Shown: piece by piece, positions 20,168 through 63,503 of the stretch
Position numbering within the stretch: position 1 is the first letter of the stretch
Layout: the number at the start of each line of letters is the position of its first letter
Assembly: GCA_963809485.1 (NCBI GenBank)
Contig: CAWEJX010000020.1
Location: 448,001-512,000 of the forward strand
Length of the DNA: 64,000 bases
Direction: 5' to 3'
Origin: an uncultured Acidobacteriota bacterium
GTDB lineage: Bacteria > Acidobacteriota > UBA6911
Made by a program: the position numbers and the translations under genes
Notes under the pieces: generated by a model
What the model was told of the DNA's origin: nothing
What the model saw: the letters and a program-made list of their open reading frames with translations, nothing else
Databases searched by the model: none

Positions 20168-21844
20168 TTACCTCCATTTGTCAATGGAAACGGTTATGGG
20201 TCTGTACATATGCCAGGCCTGCATCATGGGGCTGGCGTCGCCTCCCGCGACAATGACATGAACAGTGCCGGGTCTGAATACACGATTTTCAACGCTGTCA
20301 GGCTTACCAGCGGTATCCGGAGTATCTCTGAAATAATGGGAGGTCCGTAGTTCGCCAAGGGGTTTTGTGGCATGTTCAACCAGGTAATCGGCTACTCCCT
20401 GTTTGGTATATCCTTGAGCCTTCAATATCTCCGCACGCTTTGGCGATATGATAATGGCAGCGCCGCTTGGAAGCTCAAACTCAGCAATGTCTTCTGCAAC
20501 ATGCTTTAGCGTAAAACGCACATGGCCATAATTGCCGGCGTGTGCCCAGCCTCCGGTAAACATTGTGAGAGTGTTGTCCTCTTTTTTAAATCCCTGTGAT
20601 ACGCTTAGAAACTCCCAGGGGCTTTGCTCCTCAAACTCAGCGAACATAAATGGCCAGGTGCTGATGTTACCCACAACCGACATCATATTTATGCCGGACA
20701 CTCCTCCGCCCAGATTAGTGATAAATAAACGCAGGGCACGGCCCATGGCAGCGTTGGCATAGTTGCCTGGACCCAGCACAGAAGTCCCGGCATTCATCTC
20801 CAGCTCCTTGCTGATGGGCCCGTTTACAACCTGCATAAAAGAGAACGCATTTGTGGACCGCACAAGCGAGTTGGTTTTATTGTGCAGATCGTAGGCCTCC
20901 AGGGCAGCCAGAAGCACCGGCATATGGCGGGGCTCACAACCTGCCATGACGCCGTTGATAGCAACTTTCTCCACCGTGACACCAAGGCCTTCTGGCGTTA
21001 AGGCTTTGATAACTACGGTGTCCGGTTTCTGACTCGTACCCCGTAACATAGCCGCCACGCGTGCCTCTGTGGGGGGAACAATCGGCAGACCGTCACTCAG
21101 GCCATGAGTATGGAAATATTGCTGAATTTCATCAAAGCTGCCGTTGGTCATGATTCGCGGTCTTTCCGGCGCATCGATGAAACCGGTTTTTTGTTCATGA
21201 GCCTCCAGAGGGAGTGTAAGGCATCCCAGAATATCCTCGATAGCCTTGCTCTCCTGGGATGGGCTCATAGTGTCTGCAGGGAAAGGGATCGCAACATAGC
21301 GCACTTCCGCTCCCTGTCGCTTGCGGGTAGTGTCCGCAACAGTTAATAAAGTGTCATACATCAACACGACACCCGGCAAACCCATTTTTTCAAGCTTTGC
21401 CGACCACTGGAAGGCATAGGAAGTGGTGGATGAGGACGGGGCACCGGCATAGATGAAGGCATCGGCATTGGCCTTCATTTCCTTCCAAAGCTCCGGATCA
21501 TCTAAAGAATATCCGGTATTGCGTCCTTTGATCGTTACCGTTGCATCGGGCTGGCGCTCTCGTATTACGTCGGCGATCTTTGAAAAAATAGTTTCAAATC
21601 CGGTGCCACTGCCCCAGGAATTGATAATATAGATCCGCGTTCTTTTCAGGGATGACAGCCTGGGGCTTAATGGAATGCGCTCGATTTTTGGCCAGATGCC
21701 CCGTGGATCGAGTACCGAGTATACGCCTTCCATATTTTTTTCATCCCGTTCTGCTGCGGGCACCAATGAAGACAGATTAAGCAAAACGATAGCAATCAAG
21801 GAGCATAAACTCTTTACATACACAGTATGTCTTTTAGACACCAT
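20168..21844 (-). CDS. Exported UGSC-family-like protein (Ser/Thr variant, no Sec or Cys motif)
   Basis: Signal peptide, SDGLPIVPPTEARVAAML, VAINGVMAGC, VVNGPI, ANAAMGRALRL, ends SIDKWR. Paralog of 57884-59611 and 61863-63503. Confidence 0.8.
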   Translation of the reverse strand: MVSKRHTVYVKSLCSLIAIVLLNLSSLVPAAERDEKNMEGVYSVLDPRGIWPKIERIPLSPRLSSLKRTRIYIINSWGSGTGFETIFSKIADVIRERQPDATVTIKGRNTGYSLDDPELWKEMKANADAFIYAGAPSSSTTSYAFQWSAKLEKMGLPGVVLMYDTLLTVADTTRKRQGAEVRYVAIPFPADTMSPSQESKAIEDILGCLTLPLEAHEQKTGFIDAPERPRIMTNGSFDEIQQYFHTHGLSDGLPIVPPTEARVAAMLRGTSQKPDTVVIKALTPEGLGVTVEKVAINGVMAGCEPRHMPVLLAALEAYDLHNKTNSLVRSTNAFSFMQVVNGPISKELEMNAGTSVLGPGNYANAAMGRALRLFITNLGGGVSGINMMSVVGNISTWPFMFAEFEEQSPWEFLSVSQGFKKEDNTLTMFTGGWAHAGNYGHVRFTLKHVAEDIAEFELPSGAAIIISPKRAEILKAQGYTKQGVADYLVEHATKPLGELRTSHYFRDTPDTAGKPDSVENRVFRPGTVHVIVAGGDASPMMQAWHMYRPITVSIDKWR

Positions 21845-22523
21845 ATCTGTTCCTCACATTAAGGGTTTGCATCTAAAATCAGGACCGGGCAATCCGTAAT
21901 TATGAATGCTGCGCAAATTGATTACATGTATGTGCCATCACTTGTCAAAAGCAGCTGTAAGGAAAATCTACGATATTTGATGTTACCTAAGCAAGAAATG
22001 ACGCCAAAGAATCCTTCGGCAGGTTGACGGATAGCCTCCAGCTGTTAAGCAGCGCCTTTTTATCAGCCTAACTTCTGGTATTCGACAAACGACAAAGAGG
22101 AGCAAGATTCTGTAAGCCATCTCCCTTAGCGGCCGTTTTGACCCCATGCCATATTGCTTTTGATGTGAGCCCAGGTCGCCAGGGACGCCAACTCCCTTTG
22201 GGTTCTGGAAGCAACAATTGAAATCCAGTCATAACTGGTGTCCTATAGCAGATTATGCGAATCCCGTTCAAGGATCATACAGCTCGCGGATTGTAAGGAC
22301 GGCGTTTTGAAAATCGCTGAGCATCGGGTTGTCTATGAAAGTCCGGAGCAGACTCCTGCCGCGTCGACAAATCCGGCACCTAAAAGGCGAGTGCGCCGGC
22401 CGAGAAATTGCTCTTTCTGATCATTCGGGGGGAAGACCCTATCGGGACAGAACCGGCAACCCAATGATGAAGCGTCATAGCCCAGTGCGTCTGTTGAGTG
22501 CCGTTGCCACGGTTATCTGCCTA

Positions 22524-25501: not shown

Positions 25502-25525
25502 CATCAAGAAAAGGAGCAAAAGTAT

Positions 25526-25879: not shown

Positions 25880-25882
25880 GGC

Positions 25883-27860: not shown

Positions 27861-27885
27861 ATCCATCCCTGAGGAAGCCGCATGA

Positions 27886-37710: not shown

Positions 37711-38455
37711 TGTATGTCTTCAGCGAAAATGGGAATTCGGGCGACCAAACTAAGAGACACTTTGCGCCGAAACTGATATAGCGAGTTTAGCATTGATTGC
37801 TTGCCTCCCGGCAAGTGTTTTTCCTTTTAGCTTTCTCCTTTTGCTTTGAATCGTATCCCTTCTGCCAAAATAAACATCATCCGGCGTTACGTTACCAAGG
37901 GCTTCGTGGTATCGCCGGCTGTTGTAGTATTCGATGAAACTGGCAATCTCTTGTTTAACTTCATCGGGCGATTCCCAAACGACAAGGTTGATCTGTTCCT
38001 TGCAGGAACGGTGGTATCGCTCAATCTTCCCGTTGGTCTGCGGATGGTAGGGTGAAGCCAGAATATGCCCGATTCCTTTGACTTCAAGATAACAGCCAAA
38101 CTCTCTCGAAATCAGGGCCGATCCACGATCTGTAACCAGCCGGGGCCGGTCCACTTCCGGAATGGAATGAATCCCGACCGATTCGCAGGCCTCTTCAATG
38201 ACATCGCTGAAGTCTCCAGCCGCCATAGCCGACTGCAAACGCCAGGCGAGAATACACCGACTGAAATCATCTATTACGGAAATCAGGTAATACCAACCCC
38301 AGTTCTTAACCGGCAAATACGTGGCGTCAGTTTGCCACTGTTGATTCGGCCTGCTGGTTTTCACGCGGTATTCCGGTCCTGCCGGAAAGGTCTTCTGTTG
38401 GACTTCGTGAATAAACCCTTCCCGTTTCAGAATCCGATAAACCGAAGACTCTGAA
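37711..38455 (-). mobile_element. IS481/IS3-like DDE (rve) transposase, 5'-truncated, with one terminal end
   Basis: WQTDATY, DDFSR, TDRG, HPQTNGKIERYH and YYN.RRYHEAL motifs. End sequence TGTATGTCTTCAGCG at 37711. Confidence 0.82.
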
Positions 38456-41252: not shown

Positions 41253-41519
41253 TATATATTTTGGGGTGCTTCCGCAATCTACTGTTGGCGGTCTGTCTTT
41301 ATCCAATTCTGAGCAAAGCACTTATGTTCGTTTTAACGCGAGGTCAGAATCGGTGAGGTCAAAACCGGCTATAATATTCTGTGCTATAAAGCTTTAGGTT
41401 AATCCCAACAACACTCAACGACGGAAGCACCAGAATCAGCTCCATGCGCCGGATCGCGAACTCTTCGAATTCCGGGATTTGTTCCACCGACGCCAGCTTT
41501 CCCGAAACAATTCCCGGAC

Positions 41520-44745: not shown

Positions 44746-44943
44746 AAGCAATCACGGTACGATAACTGTGGTGATTCAAAATCTGGGGGGGTACTCGATA
44801 GAAGAAGTTGCCATTCAGGCACGCAATTTTTATGAAGCAAGGCGAAAGTAGATGTCTTGGGCCAGCCAAAGGATTATGGGAAATCACTGGTTTTCTGAAA
44901 TCAGAAAAGATTTTTAACGATTTACTTGAGGAGAATATGTCCC

Positions 44944-47900
44944 ATGAGATCAACAATCACTGCAATTTGTTGTTTGCTCGTTGTTGCCGGAGCGGCGATT
45001 GCACAAAGCGATCGGGGCACGATTACGGGAACAGTATCCGATCCCGCGGGTGCTGTCATAGCCGGCGCCGGGATTGAATTGAAAAACATCAATACCGGTG
45101 CCGTGTATCAAGCGCAAAGCTCTTCGACAGGCAATTACACGATCGGCCAATTGCCTGCCGGCAAGTACCAAATGTCGTCCTCGGTGCCCGGATTCAAGCA
45201 GTTTATAAGAACGGGCATCACGGTTCTGGTGGCGCAAACCTTGCGCATCGACATTTCACTCGAGGTGGGCGCCATCACCGAGACTGTCACCGTCAATGCC
45301 GATGCTCCCCTATTGAGGACCGAAAGCGGCGAGTTGGCGACACAATGTCGCTGGAAGTACTCTTAATGAGCTTCCCATTCTGGGATTTTCGGGATACATT
45401 CGCGATCCCTATGCCGCGGTGCAGTTGATCCCGGGCGCGCTCTATGGCTCCGGCACCATACGCATGGTTGGGGCACCCGCGAACACGCAGGGTATTCGGG
45501 TCGAGGGCCAGGATTCAACCAACGGATTGTTTTTAAATATGACGATGTTCAACCAACCGGGTGCGGATGCGGTCGAGGAGATTGCGGTTCAGACCAGCAA
45601 CTTTGCCGCCGAATACGGGCAGGCGGGGGGCGGAATGCTCAATATGACCATGAAATCCGGCACCAATAAGCTGCACGGAAGCGCGTACGATTATTGGTAC
45701 AACGAAGCATTCAACGCCAGTTCGCCGTACGGAAGAAAGGACCGTCAGCGCCGGCACGACTACGGTTTCACGGCAGGGGGGCCCGTTTATATTCCCAAAG
45801 TGTACGACGGGCGCGACAAGACGTTTTTCTTTTTCAACTTTGAGCAGTTGCGGGAGACGAGTGTCGACAACAACACCACGTACACGGTTCCCACCCTGAA
45901 AATGCGCCAGGGAAATTTCAGCGAGGTGTTTACCGGTGCAACCGTGACTACCGCTGATGGAGTCAAGACTATCCTACAAAACCAGCTCTACAAACCCGGG
46001 ACGGAACATACCTATATCGGTCTTGACGGAAAAAGCTACCTAATGAGAGATCCGTACCCAAACAATGTGGTTACGGACCCGTTTGACAGCGTTGCCCTGG
46101 AAGTCCAAAAGCTGATTCCCGAACCTGCGGGTCCTTATAAAGACAACTTGACCGACAATTATCTTGTTCCATGGGATAAATACAACTACAGGACTATTCC
46201 AAGTGTAAAGATCGATCACAACTTCGGTACGCGCTCAAAGCTTTCAGGCTATTGGGCGGCTGTGCGCAATAGCTCAAATCAAATTGACTGCGATGCTCTT
46301 TACTTGATCAGTCCCGCTACAGCCTGCAGGGTTTCGGTTACTCGCACTCAAACGGTGCGTTTGAACTACGACTTTTCCCTGACGCCGACAAAGCTGCTGC
46401 ATCTCGGCGCCGGCTATCAGGTCGTGCGTTTTTATCAAGACCCCCGCCCAACCCTTCGATCAGCAAAAGGAACTCGGCCTGCCGCAGCCGAAGGGAGCAG
46501 ACGCCAAATACTTCCCCCACTTTACAGGGCTTTCCACGACTTACGGTGGGATGTTCGTAAACATCGTGGGCGTAGGCCCGGCCACTTTACAAAACCGGCG
46601 AATGGATAAGCCGACCGCGAATGCCAGCCTAACATGGGTCAAATCCAACCACACCTACAAATTCGGCGCGGAATTGCGCATCGAGGGGTATCCGACCCAG
46701 CTCGTGCAACCCTCCAACGGCCGATTTAGCTTTTCCAGCACGCAAACCGGAATTCCCGATTCTGCGTATGTCAAGACGCTTTCGGTGGGTTTCCCATACG
46801 CGAGTTTCCTTCTAGGACAATTTAGTAACGACTCGACCGGCGCAATGGCTACTCCGCGCGTGGGGAAGTCGTCGTGGGCTTTGTTCGCTCAGGACAGCTG
46901 GAAGGCAAGCCGCAAACTCACACTGGATTACGGATTGCGCTGGGATTACCAGGGCTATTTGAGAGAGACTTACGGCCGGATTGCGAATTTCTCCCCCACC
47001 ACTCCGAATCCCAACGTCGGCAATCTGCCGGGAGCCATGATTTTTGAAAGAAACGGTGTGAAATTCGCGGACGTTTATGCCTTCGCGTTCGGTCCGCGGT
47101 TGGGAGCCGCTTATAAAATCACTCCCAAGACGGTGTTCCGCGGAGGATTTGGCATTAGCTACGGGCAAACCGCCAGTGATAATGGGGCAATGGTAACTTC
47201 TGGCAGCGCCGCTACACCATACTCAGCTCCTTATTACGGTGCGGCATGGAGGATGCTGAACCAGGGAGCGCCGGAATCACCAACGGGAATGTACGTATGG
47301 CCCAATGTGGATCCCGGCTATTTGAATACTTCACCCACACCCGTAACAACAAGCGCGCCGCCCGCATGGGATCATAATGCGGGCCGGCCGCCGAGGCAGA
47401 TACAGTGGAGCATCAGCCTCCAGCGGGAGATTACCAGGGACCTGATGGTGGAAGCCTCATACATCGGCAACCGCGGCGCCTGGTGGGAGGGCAACGAACT
47501 CATCAACGTAAATGCGATATCGGCGGAACGGCTTGCCACCTTTGGACTCAGCCTTAACAATTCCGACGATAGAGTCCTTTTGTCCGGCAAAATGGACTTC
47601 CACGGCTGCGAAGAGCCGTATAAATCCGGTCACAAAGCTTCCATTCAGCACCCCGCCGTACACTGGATTCCCGACAGGCCAAACCGTCGCGCAATCATTG
47701 CGGCCGTTCCCGCATTTCGGACAACCATCAATTATAGATGGTCGCCGCTCGGCAGGACCTGGTTTGACGCGCTGCAAGCGAAAGTGACCAAACGGTATTC
47801 CCACGGGCTTGACTTCAGCAGTTCGTTTACCTGGCAGAAAGAGTTGGTCATGGGATCGGAAATAACGGGCACACAAACCGGAGGAACCGGCGGAGTCGTA

Positions 47901-48599
47901 AACAACGTGTTCGACCGCAGTGTCAACAAGTACATGTCGACCTATTCCCGGCCAATCGTATGGACCACCTCGCTGAACTACGTGCTGCCGAAGCTGGCAG
48001 TAAACAAGGTGCTGTCGATGGCGATTCGCGATTGGAGTATCGGCCTCGTTTTGGATTACTCCAGCGGCAGATTGATTCAGGTTCCAGCAGCTTCGTCGAC
48101 CAGCGTGACCTCCCTCTACACCTTCCAAAACACTTTCGCGAACCGGGTTGCGGGTCAGCCGTTGTTTCTGCGGACTGTGAGAAACGCTGATGGGACCAAA
48201 TCCACGATGCCCCTCGACACCCTCAATAACCGAGGCGCATTTGACCCTCTCACCGATTTCGTGTTTAATCCGGCGGCTTGGCAAGATCCGCCCGCAGGCC
48301 AGTATAGTACCGCGGCGGCATTTTACAGCGACTACCGGTACCCGCGTCATCCCTCGGAGAAGCTGAGCATAGGGCGGATCTTCCGGCTCGGGGAGGGCGC
48401 TACCCTGAGTATTCGGGCCGACTTCATTAACATACTGAACCGCATGGTATTGGGGGATCCCCTCTTGACGCGGACCCCTGCAAATGCCACCCAGAATTGG
48501 TCGAGCTCAGGCATTACATCTTCCGGCTTTGGACGCTACAACGCGACTGCCGCCAACTCGCAGCGCAATGGCTCCATAGTCGCGCGGATTCAATTTTAA
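44944..48599 (+). pseudogene. TonB-dependent receptor (Oar-like, carboxypeptidase-regulatory N-domain) with about four frameshifts
   Basis: AQSDRGTITGTVSDPAGA, NFAAEYGQAGGG, KSGTNKLHG, FAQDSWK..KLTLDYGLRWD, PRLGAAY, terminal ARIQF. Frame changes near 45345, 46445, 47600 and 47715. Confidence 0.85.
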
Positions 48600-51114: not shown

Positions 51115-51433
51115 GCTCCTGATTTGATGAATTGCATACAGTTACTAATCAGTTCATAGATAAGCCGACATAGGAATGGGCAACCCGAACAAAGCCAGCC
51201 ACGAATTTCACAAAAAAACGTTGTTCGTGCAGGGGCCGAAGGCCAGCCCGACGCTTAGTGGAATTCGTGGCAAGTTGTGCTTATGCCTGTCGATGGTTTA
51301 TATCCCATGAATGTCCCCTTACCAATGAACCGATTAGTATCCAAATAGTGACATCATAAAAGACAAACACGGTGCCGGCGTTGCTGGTAACATCGCGATC
51401 ACAGTGCAGGAGAGGATCCGAAAGGAGAGATTC

Positions 51434-53029
51434 ATGGGAGCCAAGAGGCAAAAAGCGCATCTTGCAAGAAGAGATTTTCTCAAAACAGCGGCCGCAGGCG
51501 CAGGAGGGGCCGCTTTGGCCGGATTTGGCGCGAGCGAAGCGGGAGCCGTGCAATTCGGCGAGGTTCGGAAATGGGACTACGAGGCGGGAATCGTCGTCCT
51601 GGGAATAGGCGGAGCGGGTCTGGCCACAGCCATAGTTGCCCGTGATCTGGGAACCGATGTCCTCATGCTCGAGAAGGCGAAGGAATCTCACGCCGGGGGC
51701 AACTCCCGAGTCTCGATGCAGGGCTTCTGGTGTCCGCCAGACTATAATCAGGCCGTGATCCATCAAAGGGCGCTCAATGACGGATTTCCGGTACCGGATG
51801 AGGTGATTGAAGCCTATCACCAATACACGACAAAGAACCCCGACTGGCTTAGAAAAATTGGCGCCCAAGTCATACAGCCCGCAAGCGGTAACGCAAGCAG
51901 GGCCTCGTACCCGGAGTTCCCCGGCGCTGAAAGCGCGGCTGTGTGCTTTCTCGACAACGGGAAAGGACAGGCGGGGTCAGGGTTCCAAAGGCTCTGGACG
52001 ATGCTCAGGGACAGCGCCGTGAAGAGGCAAGTCAAAATCATGTATGAAACACCCGGGATTGAATTGATCCAGGATTGCAAAACGAGGGAAATCCGCGGAG
52101 TGGTCGCCGACAGGCAGGGTAAAAGGATATACGTCAAGGCCAAGAAAGCTTTGGTTTTGTGTACCGGAGGATTTGAGAACAACCAGGGGATGATTCGGGA
52201 CTATCTTTCGATGCCGTGCGGATACCCATTTGGCACTCCGTATAACACGGGAGACGGCATAAGAATGGCGATGGCGGTGGGGGCCGACCTTTGGCATATG
52301 GACAGTCAAGCAGGCCCCACTCTCAGCTTCAAACCGCCGGATTTTGATTTTGCATTGGGCGGCGGAGGCGCTCCGCGTAATCGGGGATTTATCTGGGTTG
52401 CCAAGGACGGAACACGCTTCATCAACGAAAACACGCCCAGCAAACACGGCAAGATAGCTTACCATGGCACATACATTCAGCTTCCTACCCCCCTGCCGAT
52501 ACATTCGATTTTTGACGAGGCGGGGAGAAAGAGCGGGCCCCTCTTTACACTCGGCGGCAACATGGGTTGGAATACAATTATCGCGCAATACAAGTGGAGT
52601 GATGACAACAGCGTAGAACTTGCGAAGGGTTGGATCACAAAGGCAGACAGCATACGGGAACTGGCGGCTAAAATAAAAAAGGATCCGGACGCGCTGGAAA
52701 AAACCCTGGCCACCTGGAACAAATCCTGCGCGGCGGGCAACGATTCGGAGTTCGGCAGGCCCAGTGATCGAATAGCTCCAATTCAAATCCCACCCTACTA
52801 TGCCTTGGAGCTTGTTCCTACGTTCACAAACACGCAGGGCGGACCCCGACGCAACAAGAATGCTCAAATATTGGATCCATACGGCAAGCCTATCCCGAGG
52901 CTTTACTCGGCTGGAGAACTGGGTTCCCTATGGAGCTGGAACTACCAGGGCGCCGGCGACTTTGCGGAGTGTCTCGCTTTCGGGCGCATTGCGGGCGAGC
53001 ACGCTGCCGCTGAAAAGCCCTGGTCGTAG
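51434..53029 (+). CDS. Tat-exported FAD-binding oxidoreductase (flavocytochrome c/fumarate reductase/3-ketosteroid dehydrogenase superfamily)
   Basis: ARRDFLK signal, VVLGIGGAG, LCTGGFENN, NTGDGIRMA, NTQGGP and IPRLYSAGE motifs. Confidence 0.88.
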   Translation: MGAKRQKAHLARRDFLKTAAAGAGGAALAGFGASEAGAVQFGEVRKWDYEAGIVVLGIGGAGLATAIVARDLGTDVLMLEKAKESHAGGNSRVSMQGFWCPPDYNQAVIHQRALNDGFPVPDEVIEAYHQYTTKNPDWLRKIGAQVIQPASGNASRASYPEFPGAESAAVCFLDNGKGQAGSGFQRLWTMLRDSAVKRQVKIMYETPGIELIQDCKTREIRGVVADRQGKRIYVKAKKALVLCTGGFENNQGMIRDYLSMPCGYPFGTPYNTGDGIRMAMAVGADLWHMDSQAGPTLSFKPPDFDFALGGGGAPRNRGFIWVAKDGTRFINENTPSKHGKIAYHGTYIQLPTPLPIHSIFDEAGRKSGPLFTLGGNMGWNTIIAQYKWSDDNSVELAKGWITKADSIRELAAKIKKDPDALEKTLATWNKSCAAGNDSEFGRPSDRIAPIQIPPYYALELVPTFTNTQGGPRRNKNAQILDPYGKPIPRLYSAGELGSLWSWNYQGAGDFAECLAFGRIAGEHAAAEKPWS

Positions 53030-53420: not shown

Positions 53421-54084
53421 ATGAAAAATGAAGAGAAGAAATCCGCGCAAGGGAGCGAAAAAGACGGATTAGGATCCATATCCCGGAGAGTATTCCTGAA
53501 GGATGCCGGGTTCGTGGTTGGCGCTCCCGGCATTGGATCTCTCGCAACGTCCGCTCTGGCCGCAACTCCAGTCGCCGCGGCGGGAGCTGTGGCTGCCACC
53601 CAGCGGGGGGGAGAATCAGACGCAACGGAGGTCGTCGAGCTTACGGTCAATGGGGGCAGATACCGGCTCAATATCGGACCGGCCTGTAGTCTGCGCTCAC
53701 TTCTGCGCGATCAGATTAGGCCTTACCTCTCCAAAGGACTGGTGCGGCGGGCAAGGCGCCTGTGGTTCCTGCACCGTCATTGTGAACGGGAGGCCCGTCC
53801 TGTCGTGCCTGACGCTGGCCAGCGAGTGCAATGGAGCCAAGATAGAGACGGCGGAAGGCATTGCCAAGGCTAAACACCCGATTGTCCAGGCTTATATAAA
53901 CAACAATGCTTTCCAGTGCGGTTACTGCACGCCGGGTTTCGTATGCACAGCCAAGGCGCTGCTGGACAGGAATGGCAAACCTACCGAAGCTGAGGCAAGA
54001 GACGCCCTTGGCGGCAATCTTTGCCGTTGCGGCACCTATCAGCGACATCCTATTGCGGTATTGGAAGCCGCAAAGAGTCTTTAG
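53421..54084 (+). CDS. Tat-signal 2x[2Fe-2S] small subunit of a xanthine dehydrogenase/aldehyde oxidoreductase family enzyme (PaoA-like), one frameshift near 53715
   Basis: SRRVFLK signal in ORF 53421, CGGQGACGSC..SC, QCGYCTPG and NLCRCGTY in ORF 53503-54084. Removing one base gives LRDQLGLTSPK. Confidence 0.82.
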
Positions 54085-54096
54085 AGGAGGAAGAAT

Positions 54097-56493
54097 ATGG
54101 CAGATAACCAGCCGTGGACTTGGGAGATACCGGAAACGGATGAGAGCATTAAACGCAACATGTTCCCCCGACAGGACGGATATGACAGGGTGAGCGGCAA
54201 GGCCGTGTTCACCAGAGATGTCTACCTTCCGGGAATGGTGTATGCGAAAATTCTCACCTCGCCTTATGCTCATGCAAAAATCGTAAAAATGGATACAAGC
54301 CAGGCGGAGGCGCTCATAGGTGTACGGGATATCGTCAAATATGACGACCCGGACGTTGTGGATGAAAACGATACTCAGGTGCAGCAGTACAATAGTCTCA
54401 CCCTTCCCGGCATCAGCGACTTTTACAATCATCCCATGGGAGTTGTGGTGATTGCCGACAGCGAGGAGATATGCGACCGGGCGCTGCGGCTGATCAAGAT
54501 AGAATGGGAGGAGCGGCCGTTCATCCTGAATATGGAGGAATCACTGAAGCCGGATGCCCCAAAGATTTGGACCGAGGCGCTGCGCTTTCAGCCTACGGCC
54601 AAAGAGCCCAACAGGTACATAACGCGTGAACAGGAAGTTGGCGACGTCCAGAAGGGTTTCGCCGAAGCCGATAAGGTGCTGGAGTACACCATAAAGCGGG
54701 CTCCGAACACAACGGCAGGCGTCGAAGCCATCGTCTGTGTGGCCCATTGGAGGGGAGAGTTTCTTGACATTTGGGTGCACCACCAGGGCATCCTGCAATC
54801 GAATCTCAGTTCTCCCAACAATGCAAGAGGTATCGCCGGCAAGCGAAAACCAAATCCTGCTCTAACCCACTGGTCTAAAATAACGCTTACGATGCCCTAT
54901 CAGGGTTCATGGTTCGGCGGAATAAACCACATCGCTTGTTCCGTTTCGCTTATCCGTCTCGGCGCCATCCTGGCCAGGAGGGTCGGGAAACCGTTGAAAC
55001 TGCTGTATGACGAAAGCCAGTTCTATATCAATGGCGAAGAAACCGGCATGTTTAAATGCAAGGTGGGAGCCAAAAAGGACGGCACCATCACCGCCTGTTA
55101 CTGGCACATGATGGGATCGAGGAATCCGGTCTTTGAGAAGACGTATGAATGCACCCGCATACCCAATATCCGAGGAACCCAGGAGACGGCGTTCACTAAT
55201 ATGGGACACATCGTTTGTTTCCGGGACGGCACTTCGGGAAGCATCCCTCATCAGGTTATGATTGACCGGGTAGCGGCTGAATTCGGCCTCGATCCGACCG
55301 AAGTGGCGCTGAAGAACGATGGCTGCCGCGGACACGACTGGGATTGGGTCACCCAATACCAGAAAGACAATGGTTTCCCGCAAAGGTGGAGCCTCAAAGA
55401 GGTCCTTGAAAAGGGCAAGAAAGCCATTGACTGGGACCGGAAATGGCACGCGCCCGGAACCAAAAAGCTTGCCAATGGGAAGATGCACGGTATGGGATTC
55501 ATGTACATTAATCAATGGGCATGCACCACAGGCGGAAGTCTAGCGTCTTTGATGCTTCGCGACGGCAAAGTCGCCATCGTGGGTCTGCGCTGCGATCCGG
55601 GAGTGGATTCGGTATCCGGCTTCCGGCAGTGCGTGGCCGCGGCGATGGGACTGAAATACGAAGATACGGTTATTCACGAGCATCGATCCGACAACAGCAC
55701 GTTCCGTTTTGCCCCGCCGGGTGGTTCCCTGGGCACCATCATGACCGTTCCCCAATTGATAATTGCCGCCAGGGAGCTAAAACAAAGGATCCTGCAAGCT
55801 GCCATAACGTCCCCGCCGGCCGCCATGATGCGTCCTGCGCAGCCCGCTATGTTCCCGGGCAAAAAGACCGAGGATCTCGATATCAAAGACAGCATGGTAT
55901 TCGAGAAGGCAAATCCAGGGAATAAGAAGTCAGTGATCGAGGTGTTCCGCTCCTCGTCGAGCAGCGACAATTCGGGCATCGCTCATCCCGCTGCCGGCCG
56001 GGTATCGGGACTGACTGCGGATGGGAAGCCGGATCCGACGTACTACATTATGAGCCGGCAAGCCCACTTCATAGAGGTAGAGGTGGATACCGAAACCGGG
56101 CAGGTTGACATAACCAATACGGTTTGCGTCAACGACGTGGGTCACTGCTTTAATCCTGAAGGCGTCATGGGACAACAGTATGGCGGCGCCGTGATGGCCT
56201 TCGGCCGAAGCGCAACCGAGGAGAAGGTGTTCTGCCCGAATACCGGAGTGGCGCTCAATTATGATCACATAAACTACCACATTGGAACGATGAATGACTT
56301 TGCGCCCGTCCAATGCATCCTTAACGAGAGTCATTTGGGATATTCGGCGTATGGCGCATTAGGCATGGGTGAAAACGTCGGCGCGAGCCTTTCCGGAATC
56401 ACTTCTTCCGCCATATACAACGCCATAGGCAAATGGGTCCTTGACTTTCCCACCACCCCGGACAAAGTCCTCAAAGCTCTGGGCAAGATATAA
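54097..56493 (+). CDS. Molybdopterin-binding large subunit, xanthine dehydrogenase family
   Basis: DGYDRVSGKA.FTRD, SPYAHAKI, EVEVDTETGQV, GQQYGG, GMGE and AIYNAIG motifs. Confidence 0.9.
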   Translation: MADNQPWTWEIPETDESIKRNMFPRQDGYDRVSGKAVFTRDVYLPGMVYAKILTSPYAHAKIVKMDTSQAEALIGVRDIVKYDDPDVVDENDTQVQQYNSLTLPGISDFYNHPMGVVVIADSEEICDRALRLIKIEWEERPFILNMEESLKPDAPKIWTEALRFQPTAKEPNRYITREQEVGDVQKGFAEADKVLEYTIKRAPNTTAGVEAIVCVAHWRGEFLDIWVHHQGILQSNLSSPNNARGIAGKRKPNPALTHWSKITLTMPYQGSWFGGINHIACSVSLIRLGAILARRVGKPLKLLYDESQFYINGEETGMFKCKVGAKKDGTITACYWHMMGSRNPVFEKTYECTRIPNIRGTQETAFTNMGHIVCFRDGTSGSIPHQVMIDRVAAEFGLDPTEVALKNDGCRGHDWDWVTQYQKDNGFPQRWSLKEVLEKGKKAIDWDRKWHAPGTKKLANGKMHGMGFMYINQWACTTGGSLASLMLRDGKVAIVGLRCDPGVDSVSGFRQCVAAAMGLKYEDTVIHEHRSDNSTFRFAPPGGSLGTIMTVPQLIIAARELKQRILQAAITSPPAAMMRPAQPAMFPGKKTEDLDIKDSMVFEKANPGNKKSVIEVFRSSSSSDNSGIAHPAAGRVSGLTADGKPDPTYYIMSRQAHFIEVEVDTETGQVDITNTVCVNDVGHCFNPEGVMGQQYGGAVMAFGRSATEEKVFCPNTGVALNYDHINYHIGTMNDFAPVQCILNESHLGYSAYGALGMGENVGASLSGITSSAIYNAIGKWVLDFPTTPDKVLKALGKI

Positions 56494-56503
56494 GAGGAGC
56501 ACT

Positions 56504-57466
56504 ATGAAGACATGGAAGAATTTTGCGCATGTAAATGCCAAGACACTCAATGAGGCGGCCGCGCTTATGCAGAAAGGCAACGCCGCAATAATTGCCGGCG
56601 GCACCGATCTGCTGGGCACATTAAGGTTTGAGATTCTCCCTACCCACCCGGAAGTTGTGATTAACCTCAAAAGCATTTCCGGGCTGGACTACATCAAGGA
56701 AGAAGGAGGTCTGCTGAAAATAGGCGCTCTGACGCGGCTGGAAGATATCGCCAGAAGCCCTGTCGTCCGGGCCAGGTACCAGGCGCTGGCCGAGGCGGCT
56801 CACCGGACAGCCTCTCCCCATATCCGGGAAATGGGGACTATCGGCGGCAATATCTGCCAGCTCAACCGCTGCTGGTACTTCCGCAATCCCGACAATCGCT
56901 TCAACTGCATCCGCAAGGGAGGCAAGACCTGCTTTGCCCTGAGCGGCGAGAACCGATACCACTCGATCTTCGGCGCTGTTAAGATGTGTGTAGCGGTAAA
57001 TCCCAGCGACACTGCGCCTGCGCTGGTAGCGCTGAACGCCAGGATAAAGACCAACCGGCGGACTCTCGCTGCCGAACAGTTCTGGGACATGGCTGTGCCG
57101 GGATCAACCGTCCTGGCAGCCGGTGAGATCGTCACGGAAATTCAGGTGCCGGCGTCAGCCGCAGGGGCCAAGAGCGCCTTTATAAAGTTTGCCATTCGCA
57201 AATCGATAGATTTCCCTATTGTCAACTGTGCCGCAGCCATAAGCGGAGAAAATGTTCGGGTATGCCTGAACGCCGTTCACAACAAGCCCTACCGGGCAAT
57301 CAAGGCCGAGGAAGCCATGAAGGGCAAACCCATCAACGAGGCCAATGCCGAAGCCGCCGGCGAGGCCGCCATATCCGGCGCCAAGTCGCTTCCCGGTGAC
57401 AGAAACAAGTGGAAGATCCAGATCGCCAAGGTAATGGTCAAGAGGGCGATCGTCGGATGCTCGTGA
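56504..57466 (+). CDS. FAD-binding medium subunit with [4Fe-4S] insert (PaoB/HcrB-like)
   Basis: IAGGTDL, IREMGTIGGN, RCWYFR..C..GGKTC..CVAVNPSD. Confidence 0.9.
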   Translation: MKTWKNFAHVNAKTLNEAAALMQKGNAAIIAGGTDLLGTLRFEILPTHPEVVINLKSISGLDYIKEEGGLLKIGALTRLEDIARSPVVRARYQALAEAAHRTASPHIREMGTIGGNICQLNRCWYFRNPDNRFNCIRKGGKTCFALSGENRYHSIFGAVKMCVAVNPSDTAPALVALNARIKTNRRTLAAEQFWDMAVPGSTVLAAGEIVTEIQVPASAAGAKSAFIKFAIRKSIDFPIVNCAAAISGENVRVCLNAVHNKPYRAIKAEEAMKGKPINEANAEAAGEAAISGAKSLPGDRNKWKIQIAKVMVKRAIVGCS

Positions 57467-57883: not shown

Positions 57884-59611
57884 ATGAAAAGCAGAATATG
57901 CTGGTTTTTGACGGGAGCCTTTTTGGCAATGGTTGTTTTCGTGGGATCTGTGTTTCCGGCGGCTGAAGCCAAGATAACGGTTCTGAATCCGCTAGGCATA
58001 GCCCCTCCGATACGCTTGGTGCCCATGGCGCCGCGTCTCGATTCCCTGGACGGGAAGACGGTATACATCATCAACATAGGTATGGGGAATACGTTCCTGC
58101 CCGGGACTCAGAAGGTGCTTTCCGAGCGGTATCCCAAAACAAACTGGATTTATAAAGACAAGGCTGGCAGTTACTTCGATGACGATCCGAAGCTGTGGGA
58201 AGAGATCAAGGCAAAAGGCCACGCAATGATCGGGGGGGTAGGCCATTGAAGCACGTGCGCACCGGCGGTCGCCGGCCATTGTATTACAGTGGAGAGATTG
58301 GGCATTCCGACAGCTGTCTTGATCACCCAGAGATTTGTAGACATGGTAAAGGGGATTGCTTATAAGAAGGGAATGCCGAACGAGCGATTTATTTACACAC
58401 CTCATCCTGTCGCCACCAGGACGGTGGAGGAGTGCGAGAAATATAATAGGGGCAATGACCCTGTGACCGGTAAGCCCATTGTAGACGAAATTATCGCGGC
58501 GCTGACAAAGCCGCTGAGTGCCGAAGACAAAAAGACGGGATTTGTGACACGGCCGCCGCGGTCTCGGCTTCTGGAGCCCGACACTCCAACGAATCTAGCG
58601 CAGCTTTATTATAAGAATGGATGGACTGACGGGCTTCCCATCGTGCTTCCGACGGAAGAAAGAGTTGCGGAAATGCTTAAGGGAACAAGTCATGATAAGA
58701 ATGAAATCGTGGGGACGATGCGTCCCTCGCCGCCTCACGAGGCCTGGGAGTTTGACGTGGAGATGGTTGCGACAAACGCTGTGATGGCGGGCGCCAAACC
58801 GCAGCACTTGCCGGTAATCCTGGCACTGGCATCAACTGGAACAACCTCCCTCTTCACTTCTACCACCTCCTTCGCCAGGATGGTGGTCGTTAGCGGCCCT
58901 ATACGGGAACAGATCGATATGAACGCCGAGATAGGCGCCATGGGTCCGTGGAACGAATCCAATGCCGTTATTGGAAGGGCGTGGACATTGATTTCCAAAA
59001 ACCTGGGGGGAGGTGGAACTCGGGGCGAAACCTATTTAGGCAGCCAGGGGAACAATCTCAACTATAATAATGTCTGTTTCCCGGAGAGAGAGGATGCGTT
59101 GCCCGCCGGGTGGAATCCTCTCCACGTGCAAAAGGGTTTCAAAGCGGGAGATAGCGTCGTCAGCACGTTCAGCGGTTGGAGCCTTATAAACGGCGGCGGA
59201 TGGATAAGGCCTCGCCATGTGCACATTCAGCAAATGCTGACGGGGTTGTTCCAGAGCGGAGGGAATGGCGGCAGTGCTATGGTTTTGTTGGATCCGATAG
59301 GGGCCAAAGATTGCCATGATGAAGAAGGCTTCGAAACGAAGGAAAAGCTTAGCGAGCATCTTAAAAAGAACGGTACTTCTCCGGCTGCTTCATACTTTAG
59401 GCGCCGCGGCGACGATCTGAAAAAGGCCAAGGAAGGGGTTGAGCCCTTTGCAACCTGGCTGAAATTACCTGAAGGCTCTTTCGTGCCGGTGTCGCCCTTC
59501 GGGCCTAAGAATCCGATCGAGATACTCGTCGTCGGCGGCGCAACGAATGCTTTAATGATGGTTGGAGATTTCAGTTACGTAGCAAGCGCTTCAGTGGACA
59601 AGTGGAGATAG
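57884..59611 (+). CDS. Exported UGSC-family selenoprotein (in-frame TGA read as Sec122, USTC motif), ~575 aa
   Basis: ORFs 57884-58249 and 58289-59611 are in frame and separated only by TGA in GH-U-STC-APAV. SECIS-like hairpin follows. Collinear with two uninterrupted paralogs. Confidence 0.85.
58250..58285 (+). promoter_or_regulatory. Putative bacterial SECIS element
   Basis: CCGGC-GGTC-GCCGG hairpin (58262-58275) whose G-starting loop begins 18 nt after the UGA. Confidence 0.65.
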
Positions 59612-59627
59612 ACACAGAAGTCCGAGG

Positions 59628-59668
59628 ATGGGCAAGGAGCAGGAATGAGGCAATGCCCCTTGCCCATT
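59628..59668 (+). terminator. Terminator-like hairpin
   Basis: ATGGGCAAGGAGCA...TGCCCCTTGCCCAT immediately after the selenoprotein stop codon. Confidence 0.45.
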
Positions 59669-59686
59669 CGTTTATATATACGAATG

Positions 59687-60300
59687 GGGCGTGCGACATA
59701 AATGTGGGTATAAATTAACGATTTCTTTTTATGCCTCCCTATTCTGAATGCTATAATAGCATTCAGAATAGGGAGGCGCTATGGCTGACACCCTCGAAAA
59801 CCTCGAAAACCGAAGAAGTGATCTATACCAGCAAATGATGGCCCTCGGTGACTTTCGACCAGGAACGATCTCCGTCAATTACCGTAAGTGCGGCAAATCA
59901 AAGTGTGCCTGTTCGCAACCGGGACATCCGGGACATGGCCCCCAATACCTTTGGAACACTACGAGCGGAGGAAAAAGCCGCGCGCAAAGTTTGCAGCTTG
60001 GGCCGCAACTGGAGAAAACGCGGATGGAATTGGAGCATCACAATATTTTTCTCTGCCTTTGCAAAGAACTGGTTGAAGTTAATGAAAGGATTTGCAGGCT
60101 ACGGCCCGTTGTCCCGATCAAGGATGAAAAGGAACTCGATGCGCTGAAAAAAAAATTGCAGAGGCAGTTTGCTGGGAAGCTGCGCAGGAAATAGATCGGG
60201 TCGTGCAGCGGGTATTGCGAGATGTCGAACAACGTGGGCATCTCGACCTGGAGGCCAGCGAGATGGCCATTCGCGCCACTTCGCACCGCATAGGCGAATG
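59687..60300 (+). mobile_element. ISKra4-like element remnant: left end, DUF6788 ORF (59781-60194) and the first codons of the transposase
   Basis: End GGGCGTGCGACATAAATGTG; FRPGTI...RKCGKSKCAC..HPGHGP; A-run near 60147, then EIDRVV..LDLEASEMAIR, truncated. Confidence 0.65.
59733..59777. promoter_or_regulatory. Perfect 22-bp inverted repeat covering TATAAT and the RBS of the DUF6788 ORF
   Basis: GCCTCCCTATTCTGAATGCTAT-A-ATAGCATTCAGAATAGGGAGGC, ATG at 59781. Confidence 0.75.
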
Positions 60301-60316
60301 ACGACCGCCGTGTTCC

Positions 60317-60925
60317 TTAACCTCGAAGGTATCTGGTTGCATCTTTTGTAAGTGGGTAGAGCAAGACAGCTTTCCTGGACAAATGGGCTTTGAACTCGCG
60401 ATCCAGTTTGCCGCGGCCTTTGGTGTAGCCGACCAGGAGCCAATTCGCGGCACGGTAACAGGCGCCGGTATACCGCTCGGAATCCACGAAGCTTTCCAGC
60501 AACAGCGGCTGATAGGCGTACAGCCGCTGCCAATCGGCTGCAATTCGTTTCGCGGCAAGCGCCGGCAGCCGTGATGCTAAATTGCGCACGTGGACCCATG
60601 GAAAAATCACAAAACGTATGTTGTTTAGGATATAGCAAAGGTTGCGTTCGCGTTCCTTGCAGTTCCATCCGATCCACCGGTCCCGCGCTTCCACACGCCA
60701 CGCTGCCCCCGCAAAGGAAAGACAGGCGATTGGCTGTCCGGCGCGGATCACAAAATACTTGATGTGCGGCCCGACCGGCACGCCGTATCCCAAGTAGTGG
60801 TAGCGCTCGACATACTCGTTCCACAACTTTTCTTGATCGAGATTGCCTGTTCCACTGACAACCTGGAATGAGGCCGTCGCGATATCTTGCGGACCCAATA
60901 TTGCCAACGGCCTCGGCGCAGATTG
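60317..60925 (-). pseudogene. DUF4338 (DruA-like, IS-associated) domain, 5'-truncated
   Basis: LWNEYVERYHYLG, ARDRWIGW, NNIRF.IFPWV..NLASR, LLESFVD and GACYRAANW..VG.TKGRG motifs. Confidence 0.8.
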
Positions 60926-60929
60926 CTCT

Positions 60930-61125
60930 GTGTGCAGAGAGGATTTTCCCGAAGGAACCACCGCGACGCCTTGCGCCATTCGTGCCCGTATCCCATGGCT
61001 GCGGGATTTGGGCGATTGCGTGAATGTTCCCGGCGCTCTTCCCGCTGATGTAGGCGGCAGCGGCTTTCGCGCGTGAGCGCCGGGCATCCCGGATGATTGC
61101 AGGGATGCGGCGGGGCGAAGGGCAT
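60930..61125 (-). pseudogene. Phage-type HNH endonuclease N-terminal remnant
   Basis: MP.APPHPC.HPGC..L....RC..H...GYGHEWRKAS..FLRENPLC breaks off before the HNH core. Confidence 0.75.
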
Positions 61126-61514
61126 TAGGCGTATTTCCTTTTGCGGATGATTTCCCTGACGATCGCGGAGGTTCGATCATCATCAAAGGGATTCCTTCCT
61201 GGTAGCGCGGTGTGATCTGATTCCGCTGCTTTCTGATGGCAGCTTTTGCACGTGCATTGAACCCAAATCGGCCCGCTCAGATCTTCGCCGAGCAGGCGTC
61301 CGAGTCCTTCGGCGATGCAGTCAAACTCTGGCCGGAGAAACTCGTAAACCTTCGGCGAGAGGCGGTTGCTGTTCCCCATTAGGGCGCCCAGCTGACGCAG
61401 CTTCCGGAAAGTAAACGCCGGCACCCTGATTTCTTTTCCTTCCGGAGTGACCAAAGGGTGTCCCCATTCTGGGACTACAGGGGAAAGCTGAGGAAATGCA
61501 GCGGCTGAGGTCAC
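61125..61514 (-). CDS. Hypothetical protein, possibly phage-derived
   Basis: 129-aa ORF whose stop codon overlaps the HNH start, contains CxCxxC. Confidence 0.4.
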   Translation of the reverse strand: MTSAAAFPQLSPVVPEWGHPLVTPEGKEIRVPAFTFRKLRQLGALMGNSNRLSPKVYEFLRPEFDCIAEGLGRLLGEDLSGPIWVQCTCKSCHQKAAESDHTALPGRNPFDDDRTSAIVREIIRKRKYA

Positions 61515-61862
61515 TGGTTAAGCTATTCCAGGCAGCATGATACGAGTTATGCTCATCCTGAGTATATTGCTTTCCTGGAGCGCTGTAAAGGCTTTTGTGT
61601 CACAGTTCTCTCCGATCGACCCTGATTATAAATTGACAGTCGCCTCTCTTGATCGATGGACCAGCATAGCATTATAGTAGAGCCTGCGATTTAGACGGTG
61701 GAATGCGTCGCAGAAATTCCAGAATTCGATCGTATGTGCTTCACGCACGTAACCGGCTCTCGCAGCCATCCCGGTCTGAAGCCGGTGCTTTCAATTCTCA
61801 GGCCGCAATCCATGTCATTGCCGGTGCATGAATTGCAGATATTGAGACAGCGAGGATATCAT

Positions 61863-63503
61863 ATGAAAACAAGGAGAGGTGTGAGAGAACATCCGGGCGC
61901 AGGCGCCTGGATACTGGTGGTGGTGTTGATGGCGGTGGCGGCCGGCGCCTGCGCGATGCGATCAGAGGAACTTAAGGCTCTCGATCCGCGCGGATTCTGG
62001 CCGGCCGTCGAGCGGATTCCTTTGACCCCACGGCTGCCCAGCGTAAAGGATCAGCGATTCTATATCGTTATGTCCTGGCCGACCAACTCGGGCTTTGATA
62101 CTGTGGTCAAGGATCTGGAGGGCCTCCTCAAGCAGCGCGGCGCCAAAGAGGTCACCATCAAGCGCCGGAATGTGAGCTATTCAGAAGACGATCCTCCATT
62201 GTGGGCTGAGATGAAGGAGAAATGCGACGCATTCCTTTATGTGGCGGCGCCCTCTTCATCGACCACGTCGTATGCCTTCAAATGGAGCGCGAAACTCGAA
62301 AAAATGGGCCTTCCCGGCGCCGTGGTGAATTTCGACGAACTCAACAGCGTCGGGGACACCACGAATGTGCGCGAAGGCGCGTTGGTGCGCCGTTCGGCTT
62401 TCGGCTACCCGGCTGAAACCATGGCAAAACCGGCCTATGACGCAGCTGTAAACCTTGCCGTCGAAAATCTAACCAAGCCTTTGACGGCCGACGAAAAAGC
62501 CACCGGAATCACCCAGCCCAAGCCGAGGCCGGACGTGTTCGCAACCGGCAATTTCGACAGCATTCAAAAGGCCTTCTACGAGGCTAAAATGACGGACGGC
62601 TTGCCGATCGTGCCGCCGACCGCCGAACGTGTGGCCGCAATGCTTAAAGGCACAAGCCATCCAGCCGACGAAGTTGTGGCCGAGGCATTGATGCCCGAAG
62701 GGCTGAAGGTCACCGTGCGCCAGGTGGCGATCAATGCAGTGATGGCCGGCTGCCTGCCCGAGCATATGCCGGTTTTGCTGGCCACTATCGAGGCGTATCA
62801 GAAACACAATCTGAACTCGATTCTGCGCTCAACCAATCCGTTTTCCTTCATGCAGGTGGTGAACGGGCCGATCGCTCAACAAATCAAGATGAATTCGGGC
62901 ACCGGCGCAATAAGCCCCGGCAATCGAGCCAATGCCTCAATGGGGCGAGCTTTGCGCCTGTTCATCATCAATCTCGGAGGCGGCGAGCCCGGCGTAAACT
63001 TGATGGCGGTAATCGGAAATGTGTCCAGCTATTCCTTCATGTTTGCCGAGAACGAAGCAGAAAGCTCCTGGGAGCCCTTGAGTGTCAGCCAGGGTTTTAA
63101 GAAAGGGGAAAGCACGCTGACTTTCTTCACCGGCGGCTGGGCCCATTCGGGCAACTACAGTTTTGGCTATGCCAGCGAAACAGGGCTGGATGAAGTGGCG
63201 CAGGATATCGCGCGTTACCAGATGAGCGTCGGCGCCACGATCATCGTCTCTCCCAAGTACGCTGAGGAATTTCAGCGCAAAGGCATAAGCAAGGCCGCCG
63301 TTGAGACTTATCTGCAAACCCACGCGACAAGGGCTGCCGGCAGAACCAGGCCGGCACAGGGCGGCCAGGCCGCGGCGAAGCCGGTTCAGGCGTTCCGCGA
63401 AGGCACAGTCAAATTAGTCGTCGCCGGCGGGCATGCCAGTTCGATGATGCAGGCATGGAGCATGTATCGGCCGCAAACTGTATCGATCGACAAATGGCGC
63501 TAG
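61863..63503 (+). CDS. Exported (possible lipoprotein) UGSC-family-like protein, Ser/Thr variant
   Basis: Hydrophobic signal with AGAC, APSSSTTSYAF, TDGLPIVPPT, AINAVMAGC, ANASMGRALRL, ends SIDKWR. Close paralog of 20168-21844. Confidence 0.82.
   Translation: MKTRRGVREHPGAGAWILVVVLMAVAAGACAMRSEELKALDPRGFWPAVERIPLTPRLPSVKDQRFYIVMSWPTNSGFDTVVKDLEGLLKQRGAKEVTIKRRNVSYSEDDPPLWAEMKEKCDAFLYVAAPSSSTTSYAFKWSAKLEKMGLPGAVVNFDELNSVGDTTNVREGALVRRSAFGYPAETMAKPAYDAAVNLAVENLTKPLTADEKATGITQPKPRPDVFATGNFDSIQKAFYEAKMTDGLPIVPPTAERVAAMLKGTSHPADEVVAEALMPEGLKVTVRQVAINAVMAGCLPEHMPVLLATIEAYQKHNLNSILRSTNPFSFMQVVNGPIAQQIKMNSGTGAISPGNRANASMGRALRLFIINLGGGEPGVNLMAVIGNVSSYSFMFAENEAESSWEPLSVSQGFKKGESTLTFFTGGWAHSGNYSFGYASETGLDEVAQDIARYQMSVGATIIVSPKYAEEFQRKGISKAAVETYLQTHATRAAGRTRPAQGGQAAAKPVQAFREGTVKLVVAGGHASSMMQAWSMYRPQTVSIDKWR

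Follow-up and report, generated by a model that had tools for sequence, protein, structure and literature searches.

A selenium-free Ser/Thr-loop branch of the long-form UGSC family, found with a UGSC selenoprotein in an uncultured acidobacterium

Three exported UGSC paralogs in one acidobacterial window

Three genes for exported proteins of the UGSC family, one a selenoprotein and two carrying a Ser/Thr loop in place of the selenocysteine (Sec) motif, were found in a stretch of 64,000 nucleotides (hereafter the window) from an uncultured Acidobacteriota bacterium of the UBA6911 lineage (assembly GCA_963809485.1, contig CAWEJX010000020.1, positions 448,001 to 512,000; genome G000). P0001 (57884-59611, plus strand) encodes a long-form UGSC selenoprotein of the HUSTC clade, 575 amino acids in length when its in-frame TGA is translated as Sec (U). 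P0002 (20168-21844, minus strand) and P0003 (61863-63503, plus strand) encode SSSTT-type paralogs of 558 and 546 amino acids; P0002 contains neither Sec nor a CxxC motif, and P0003 belongs to a second SSSTT subclade. All three open reading frames (ORFs) lie where the initial annotation of the window had placed them, the strand of 20168-21844 having been omitted there. The frames of P0002 and P0003 are uninterrupted, and that of P0001 requires the TGA at 58247-58249 to be read as U122. BLASTP comparisons gave homology far above chance level, both between P0001 and P0002 (E 1e-73, 31% identity) and between P0002 and P0003 (E 0.0, 54% identity). The nearest paralog of P0001 was C12:192438-194360 (70% identity), and orthologs of P0002 in other genomes were 74-93% identical to it.

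The motif regions of these proteins had been described as aligning without gaps, and MAFFT reproduced this by pairing GH-U-STC-APAVAGHCITVERLGIP with AP-S-SST-TSYAF(Q/K)WSAKLEKMGLP; BLASTP gave the same placement. With this gapless alignment, Sec122 of P0001 pairs with S137 of P0002 and Cys125 with T140, within a loop (S137-S-S-T-T141) encoded at 21422-21436 on the minus strand. The corresponding SSSTT loop of P0003 is encoded at 62253-62267 (plus strand) by the codons TCT TCA TCG ACC ACG. Sequence and profile alignment suggest that SxxT and UxxC are structurally equivalent. Hydrophobic, signal-like N-terminal segments and the S(I/V)DKWR C-terminus, both claimed for all three proteins, were seen in each. 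The DKWR tail extends beyond these three and marks one half of the family tree, the other half ending in ...TKAGR or ...YExY.

All three proteins matched PF24696, the UGSC domain, in their N-terminal part above its gathering cut-off of 25 bits (P0001, 85.5; P0002, 51; P0003, 33.6 bits), the match in P0001 covering amino acids 33-186 with the UGA inside the matched span. Against the equivalog model NF041046 (UGSC_fam, cut-off 125 bits) they scored 70.1, 35.5 and 18.5 bits, respectively, and by these profile scores they are relatives of the short-form UGSC proteins rather than NF041046 equivalogs. P0001 carries the U-x-x-C or C-x-x-C motif of the family (originally U-G-S-C) as U-S-T-C; P0002 and P0003, with S-S-S-T, fall outside it. 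The C-terminal approximately 340 amino acids matched no Pfam family at E up to 10 and no NCBIfam family. A Pfam search with an alignment of 49 family members found PF24696 alone, on eight longer members, a PDB sequence search with two family profiles gave no match at E up to 1 or up to 10, and an ESM Atlas search returned just the family's own clusters, mostly ending at the UGA. Glycine/proline reductase selenoprotein B (PF07355) was considered and rejected, the full proteins matching PF24696 alone at E up to 0.1 and the C-terminal parts matching nothing in Pfam at E up to 10. Literature under the family's names consists, to judge by titles and abstracts, of selenoprotein catalogues, and the SSSTT branch was not found there. 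In their available text, the 2008 survey and a 2026 review list UGSC as a family of unknown function and count its proteins with the most abundant selenoprotein families that aquatic metagenomes contain (PMC2398784, PMC13188914).

Twelve nucleotides 3' of the UGA of P0001 (58247-58249, plus strand; motif GH-U-STC), a hairpin resembling a selenocysteine insertion sequence (SECIS), CCGGC-GGUC-GCCGG, was identified at 58262-58275 (plus strand) by eye and with ViennaRNA. Nine sibling HUSTC-type genes have a near-identical hairpin, GCCGGCGGUCG(C/U)CGG, or a one-base variant of it, at the same distance from their UGA. G000 encodes tRNA-Sec (on contig C19) and SelA, 43 of its paralogs have U at the Sec column of P0001, and an outside homolog (P0216) reads GH-C-STC, with Cys at that column. 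On these grounds the UGA of P0001 is credibly decoded as Sec by the criteria applied to bacterial selenoproteins, and P0001 is an ordinary exported long-form UGSC selenoprotein. The fold z-score of the 60-nucleotide stretch holding the hairpin, taken alone, was only -1.41, and an Rfam scan of the window matched no family. No comparable hairpin was present at the equivalent place in the SSSTT genes.

G000 contains 58 matches to PF24696. A six-frame hidden Markov model (HMM) scan found 57 ORFs aligning across the motif, one of them a spurious overlapping frame; 43 have U at the Sec column, three read SSST, ten have other non-Cys motifs and none has Cys. The three paralogs initially annotated are real, but they are just three of about 56 two-domain copies in this genome, and a third SSST copy lies at C12:198157-199905. 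The ten other non-Sec copies read LDTN, GSSG, AGQA, AGMG, SGGS, TGTS, SGA-, AETG, M-GT and NGMG, and several family fragments are present as well. The expansion is genus-wide, with 11-45 PF24696 matches in 18/18 genomes of the same genus; among 12 genomes of the class that belong to other families, two had a single match each. In eight G000 paralogs, C9:8424-10196 and C12:86855-88636 among them, no signal peptide is apparent, and two have Tat-like RRxF N-termini (C12:202394-204226 and C4:293828-296194). Three tandem paralogs at C4:340996-348037 share the motif W-U-G-A-A-T, that is, Sec without a resolving Cys, and each has its own hairpin, GUUCAGUCUGAAU, 3' of the UGA.

The SSSTT branch is conserved and independent of selenium

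A protein search with P0002 gave 774 matches at E 1e-10 or better, and the motif was read in the best 120 of these. SSST was present in all 117 outside homologs that covered the motif (49-95% identity), usually in the context A(P/A)SSSTT(S/A/H)Y(A/V)FKW; their source names include Acidobacteriota, Thermodesulfobacteriota, Gammaproteobacteria, Firmicutes and metagenome-assembled genomes of Paracoccaceae. At the DNA level SSSTT was kept in 22/22 gene copies, with synonymous variation at the third position of every codon and with all Ser codons of the TCN type. Pairwise ratios of non-synonymous to synonymous substitution rates (dN/dS) were 0.086-0.189 for the whole gene and, for the N domain, 0.055-0.12 in most pairs and 0.33 in one gammaproteobacterial pair, the N domain being constrained as much as the C domain in most pairs. 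Synonymous divergence (dS) was saturated in most pairs; the cleanest pair, the window and its ortholog L028, had a dS of 0.46 and a dN/dS of 0.125. A signal-like N-terminus was found by a crude hydrophobicity rule in 108/117 SSST members, and the frames of all listed orthologs were intact except for three broken ones (L030, L044 and L045). The SSSTT branch is thus real, old, exported and under purifying selection in both domains. The initial annotation had proposed a conserved hydroxyl-type subfamily, to be given up if SxxT proved not to be conserved outside this genome; its conservation in 117/117 outside homologs and 22/22 gene copies, the purifying selection acting on it and the starred clade described below bear the proposal out.

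The same data bear on the idea that the SSSTT genes are decaying relics of selenoprotein genes without a function of their own. The heterogeneous motifs of the other non-Sec copies in G000 and the family fragments found there would fit such decay, whereas the SSSTT genes have dN/dS values of 0.09-0.19, frames that are intact apart from the three exceptions, and a motif that is invariant across phyla. For the SSSTT clade, the selection data refute decay.

Phylogenetic analysis was carried out with FastTree on 104 rows, leaving out paralogs longer than 700 amino acids or with more than two U and taking every eighth of 120 close homologs, and with a quick IQ-TREE run on 49 rows, excluding the long-branch row P0186. 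Both trees were unrooted, and they agreed. All SSST rows fell within a starred clade (99) of 37-38 rows that holds no U and no CxxC; the rows closest to it were CGSC, HGSG and CGGM forms, followed by the Sec paralogs. Within it, 16 SSST rows formed a starred clade (99), and adding the pair of P0104 (SSST) and P0124 (ATTL) gave another of 18 (99, starred), which holds 17 of the 18 SSST rows. The monophyly of SSST forms, which the initial annotation had put forward for examination, is on these trees seen for these 16 rows and not for the label as a whole: P0127 (SSST) groups with GSSG forms outside the clade of 18, P0124 is nested beside P0104, and the SSST label needs three changes on both trees. 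The basal lines of the clade of 37-38 rows read SCST, SAST and SSST, so that S-x-S-T looks ancestral there, and we infer that the selenium-free clade started out with it and that one subclade lost it afterwards. The basal representatives P0128, P0131, P0169 and P0186 read A-P-S-C-S-T-T, with a Cys one position past the Sec column. P0003 groups with C12:198157-199905 and P0072 (100, starred), and P0002 and P0003 belong to two different SSST subclades, indicating that their duplication is old. Across the family Sec was lost several times, to L, G, A, M, N, T and S, which makes Ser/Thr one outcome among many; it is the sole Sec replacement found conserved across phyla in this analysis.

The initial annotation had also raised the option that the SSSTT proteins are partner subunits. 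As an obligate arrangement, this would have them form hetero-oligomers with the Sec paralogs, which they would regulate or complete. In its favour, P0003 follows the Sec gene P0001 at a distance of 2.2 kb, and the third SSSTT copy, C12:198157-199905, lies amid four HUSTC-type genes. P0001 and P0003, on the other hand, have their closest paralogs in these genes on C12 and vice versa, and because the closeness of P0001 and P0003 is mirrored there, duplication of a single segment best explains both regions and may account for the adjacency. Outside G000 we examined 24 SSSTT loci, ten of them with about 10 kb of sequence on both sides, and none of these ten had a second family member beside the SSSTT gene. 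In four gammaproteobacterial genomes (G031-G034) the family is represented by one, one, one and two genes, respectively, each free of TGA and scoring as SSSTT-type; a search of these genomes, whose completeness is not stated, did not find SelA. This leaves the partner-subunit option not borne out and, as a general rule, close to refuted; we regard an obligate partnership as very unlikely. Co-occurrence of SxxT with UxxC forms, a check proposed at the outset, was seen in G000 and in a Desulfatiglandales genome, in which one SSSTT gene is accompanied by 20 TGA-containing matches elsewhere on the chromosome, but did not hold for G031-G034, in which the SSSTT form stands alone. The SSSTT branch is thus independent of selenium and of the Sec paralogs.

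Between P0001 and P0003 lie a DUF6788 gene (59781-60194, plus strand), a DruA-like gene (60317-61186, minus strand) and a small ORF (61125-61514, minus strand), and the ORFs at 59781-61514 look like an inserted element. Elsewhere in the window, an rve integrase gene (37750-38364) and a fragment of a DDE transposase gene (41444-41962) were seen.

Gene neighbourhoods

Just downstream of P0002 and on the same strand, a gene at 17977-19878 (minus strand) encodes a protein of 633 amino acids with weak PETase-like and S9 alpha-beta-hydrolase matches (PF12740, E 1.1e-5; PF00326, E 5.3e-5; each under or close to its cut-off), which we treat as context rather than as a shown partner. BD-FAE, S15 and beta-lactamase-family genes lie further along the window. 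Esterase or alpha-beta-hydrolase genes within about 5 kb of an SSSTT gene were found in the window, at the loci L033, L036 and L044, which are syntenic and were therefore counted as one case, at L040 (a PETase-like gene) and at L043 (a large esterase). Neighbours at Desulfatiglans-type loci included genes for carboxylesterase, S15, PAF-AH-like, GH43 and M28 proteins.

Directly upstream of P0001, a three-gene molybdenum hydroxylase set (53503-57466, plus strand) encodes a [2Fe-2S] subunit with an N-terminal extension of approximately 80 amino acids, a subunit binding the molybdenum cofactor and a subunit binding flavin adenine dinucleotide, and presumably resembles the periplasmic PaoABC-type aldehyde oxidoreductases. 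It is preceded by an FAD_binding_2 gene (51404-53029). The window also encodes a DsbA-like thioredoxin-fold protein (8222-8845, minus strand) and a rhodanese-domain protein (377-1309, plus strand). A TonB-dependent-receptor-like protein is spread over three ORFs (44926-48599, plus strand), with CarboxypepD_reg at 44926-45366 followed by OMP_b-brl_4, positions 1-238 of this profile matching at 45419-46609 and positions 274-836 at 46551-48599; the split could be due to a frameshift or an assembly error.

Predicted fold, possible function and comparison with known systems

In an AlphaFold2 (AF2) model of P0002 (predicted local distance difference test score (pLDDT) 89.8, predicted template modelling score (pTM) 0.86), residues from about 65 to 220 formed a five-stranded beta-alpha domain. 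The best fold match of this N domain in VIA was 8s7v_H, from the MCR activation complex (Z 11.4), less than 1 Z above unrelated rows, and CheY receivers, PurE and periplasmic-binding-protein halves also matched (Z 9-10). The 8s7v paper makes no comment on the fold in the text searched. As modelled, the N domain has a flavodoxin-like fold. Strand 129-133 and helix 138-153 flank the SSSTT loop, an arrangement that would put S137 at the helix cap, and the dyad position is just past strand 3, at the C-terminal edge of the sheet. It is at this edge of the parallel sheet that flavodoxin-like folds usually bind their ligands. Modelled by itself, the C domain scored a pLDDT of 87 and a pTM of 0.90, and fold searches with it gave no confident match, the best being an encapsulin in VIA (Z 5.7, 76 residues) and a class I fumarate hydratase in Foldseek (E 0.012).

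Residue patterns were compared in one HMM alignment of 117 SSST, 43 Sec/Cys and 16 sister sequences, in P0002 numbering. A polar core consisting of D251, T259, S330, N364, R369, E403, E405 and W410, together with E152, R62 and R182 in the N domain, was present in all three groups. In the SSST sequences S76, W77, A135, S137-T141, Y143, R176, N438, Q542 and W544 were invariant (117/117) and R108, R329 and D452 (116/117 each), S113 (115/117), H435 (113/117) and W147 (111/117) nearly so, each of these branch residues from S76 to W544 occurring in at most 15% of the 43 Sec/Cys forms. S76, W77, R108, S113, A135 and Y143 follow directly on strands 1 and 2 or surround the loop, with W147 nearby, while R329, H435, N438, D452, Q542 and W544 belong to the C domain. 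A sister subclade without Ser137 shares R329, H435, N438, Q542 and W544 and does not share D452, S76, W77 or the loop. The SSST clade has a single conserved Cys (C303, 109/117), which leaves no disulfide.

P0002 and P0003 thus represent an old, selenium-independent, exported branch that works on its own and in which an invariant S-S-S-T-T loop stands in place of the U-x-x-C dyad. Since the loop would lie at a ligand-binding sheet edge, branch-specific invariant residues (S76, W77, R108 and S113) directly follow strands 1 and 2, and the polar core has been kept, the loop may still be part of the working site, and we put at about even the chances that redox chemistry has there been exchanged for hydroxyl-based binding or catalysis on a polar or anionic substrate group. 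The branch would then keep the substrate pocket of the family and swap selenium redox chemistry for hydroxyl chemistry, using the loop to bind such a group.

The main rival explanation is a binding-only protein or pseudoenzyme, in which redox activity was lost and the Ser/Thr loop forms part of the binding surface of a receptor, chaperone or scaffold. Sec and Cys were repeatedly lost to non-nucleophilic residues in the family, a sister subclade having Ala in place of Sec, and no enzyme gene is a conserved operon neighbour of the SSSTT gene, all of which would suit such a protein. The N domain also resembles periplasmic-binding-protein halves and LacI-type sensors (Z 9-10), although this is a likeness to a very common fold and is not distinct from unrelated rows. 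Loss of activity is harder to reconcile with the full retention of D251, T259, S330, N364, R369, E403 and E405, with the gain rather than loss of an invariant polar set (R329, H435, N438 and D452) and with dN/dS values down to 0.06-0.12 in both domains. We consider a binding-only role possible, though distinctly less probable than a hydroxyl-based working site.

As a special case of that favoured reading, and the first of the options raised in the initial annotation, Ser137 might act as a catalytic nucleophile that attacks the substrate outside the cytoplasm to bring about hydrolysis or transfer, so that a serine hydrolase or transferase would have arisen from a selenoenzyme. The Ser stands exactly at the Sec column and, in the model, at a helix cap after a strand; its TCN codons are one step from TGA or TGY; H435 and D452 are clade-specific; esterase genes lie nearby; and the apparently ancestral S-x-S-T pattern allows such a role. 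The top Foldseek rows for the full P0002 model were MccF/LD-carboxypeptidase-type serine peptidases (E 1.3e-3), the match to 3u1b_B being weak (E 1.3e-3, 176 columns, TM 0.19/0.29). MccF did not, however, appear among the 50 best rows of either VIA list, the sister subclade without S137 retains H435, and the invariance of S137 is matched by that of the four adjacent hydroxyls, something that a lone nucleophile would not need. We therefore regard a nucleophilic Ser137 as rather doubtful, a shade less probable than the binding-only protein. Slightly less probable again is the broader proposition that the SSSTT clade represents a novel family of enzymes, secreted and acting through Ser (or Thr), derived from a selenoenzyme by the one-base change from TGA to TCA. 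If it were true, a reductase acting through a covalent adduct of selenium and substrate would have become a hydrolase or transferase for the same substrate class, Sec in UGSC proteins would be a nucleophile attacking the substrate rather than part of a thiol-disulfide relay, and the clade would serve the family at large as a model that needs no selenium and can be expressed aerobically.

Several points weigh against a hydroxyl-based working site. The sister subclade comprises 12 rows with A, G, M or T at the Sec position (AATM, GATS, MGSL and others), and its Ala-bearing members argue against a general requirement for a hydroxyl there; as it keeps H435, N438, Q542 and W544, the scaffold can persist in it without the hydroxyl. 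The ten further Sec losses in G000 fit a function that does not need the Sec position. Five consecutive invariant hydroxyls are unlike a classic nucleophile elbow, and it is from the topology of the model that the loop is placed near H435, D452, R329 and the shared core. Among 61 genomes of the order of G031, the SSSTT gene was present in one, G031 itself, and it is thus an accessory gene of patchy distribution. The SSSTT loci have no conserved operon partner, their neighbours differing between lineages and even within the genus (the closest ortholog, L028, has CBM9 and DUF5916 neighbours), so that the periplasmic enzyme system suggested in the initial annotation was overstated; the recurring secreted-hydrolase neighbours, counted without a control set, do no more than allow an enzymatic role. 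The available text of the papers on the family describes no activity, ligand or structure for any member (PMC2398784, PMC13188914, PMC9312934, PMC1976440).

The branch nevertheless matters to the family as a whole. UGSC members containing Sec are difficult to produce, and gene callers break their genes into pieces. Because the SSSTT branch shares their architecture and C-domain core, needs no Sec insertion and occurs where SelA was not found, it is the most tractable entry to the structure, ligand and activity of the family. The replacements of Sec, an invariant hydroxyl loop in one case and Ala or Gly in others, limit what Sec can be doing, and a flavodoxin-like rather than thioredoxin-like domain, as predicted by the models, would change which mechanisms merit testing.

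Sites that vary between Sec, Cys and Ser occur in molybdopterin oxidoreductases and in the Cys-type and Ser-type sulfatases. The SSSTT proteins likewise are exported and have a hydroxyl at the position that Sec or Cys fills in relatives; they differ in that no sequence or fold relation to either group was found and no metal or cofactor site was identified. A pyruvoyl-forming Ser-Ser site and an SGNH-type esterase were also considered, with nothing pointing to either, and the SSSTT motif does not seem to fit an ApbE-type flavinylation site. MccF and the LD-carboxypeptidases (peptidase S66) consist of two domains, of which the flavodoxin-like N domain carries the Ser nucleophile; this Ser stands at a strand-helix elbow and belongs to a Ser-His-Glu triad. 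P0002 is likewise a two-domain protein and has these enzymes as its best Foldseek rows, but they differ in their absence from the VIA lists noted above and in having no sequence match to the family.

A thioredoxin-like fold was suggested for UGSC in 2008, in the available text of the survey (PMC2398784). A thioredoxin-fold oxidoreductase would carry the dyad at the start of the first helix of such a fold. The P0002 model has a five-stranded beta-alpha, flavodoxin-like domain, and no thioredoxin-fold entry was among the top 50 rows of three fold searches; to that extent the models point away from the earlier suggestion. The closest described relative in architecture is the UGSC/Unknown_1 fusion named by Zhang and Gladyshev (2008; PMC2398784), which matches the window proteins in combining a UGSC domain with an unnamed domain of approximately 340 amino acids. 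Within the UGSC family (PF24696/NF041046), P0002 and P0003 differ in having neither Sec nor Cys at the motif. Selenoproteins usually have Cys in place of Sec in their homologs, and Cys forms of the UGSC family do exist elsewhere (CGSC, CGTC, CGNC, CGLC and CSTC among cluster representatives); unlike this usual pattern, G000 has 43 Sec copies and no Cys copy, and the conserved selenium-free branch uses Ser/Thr.

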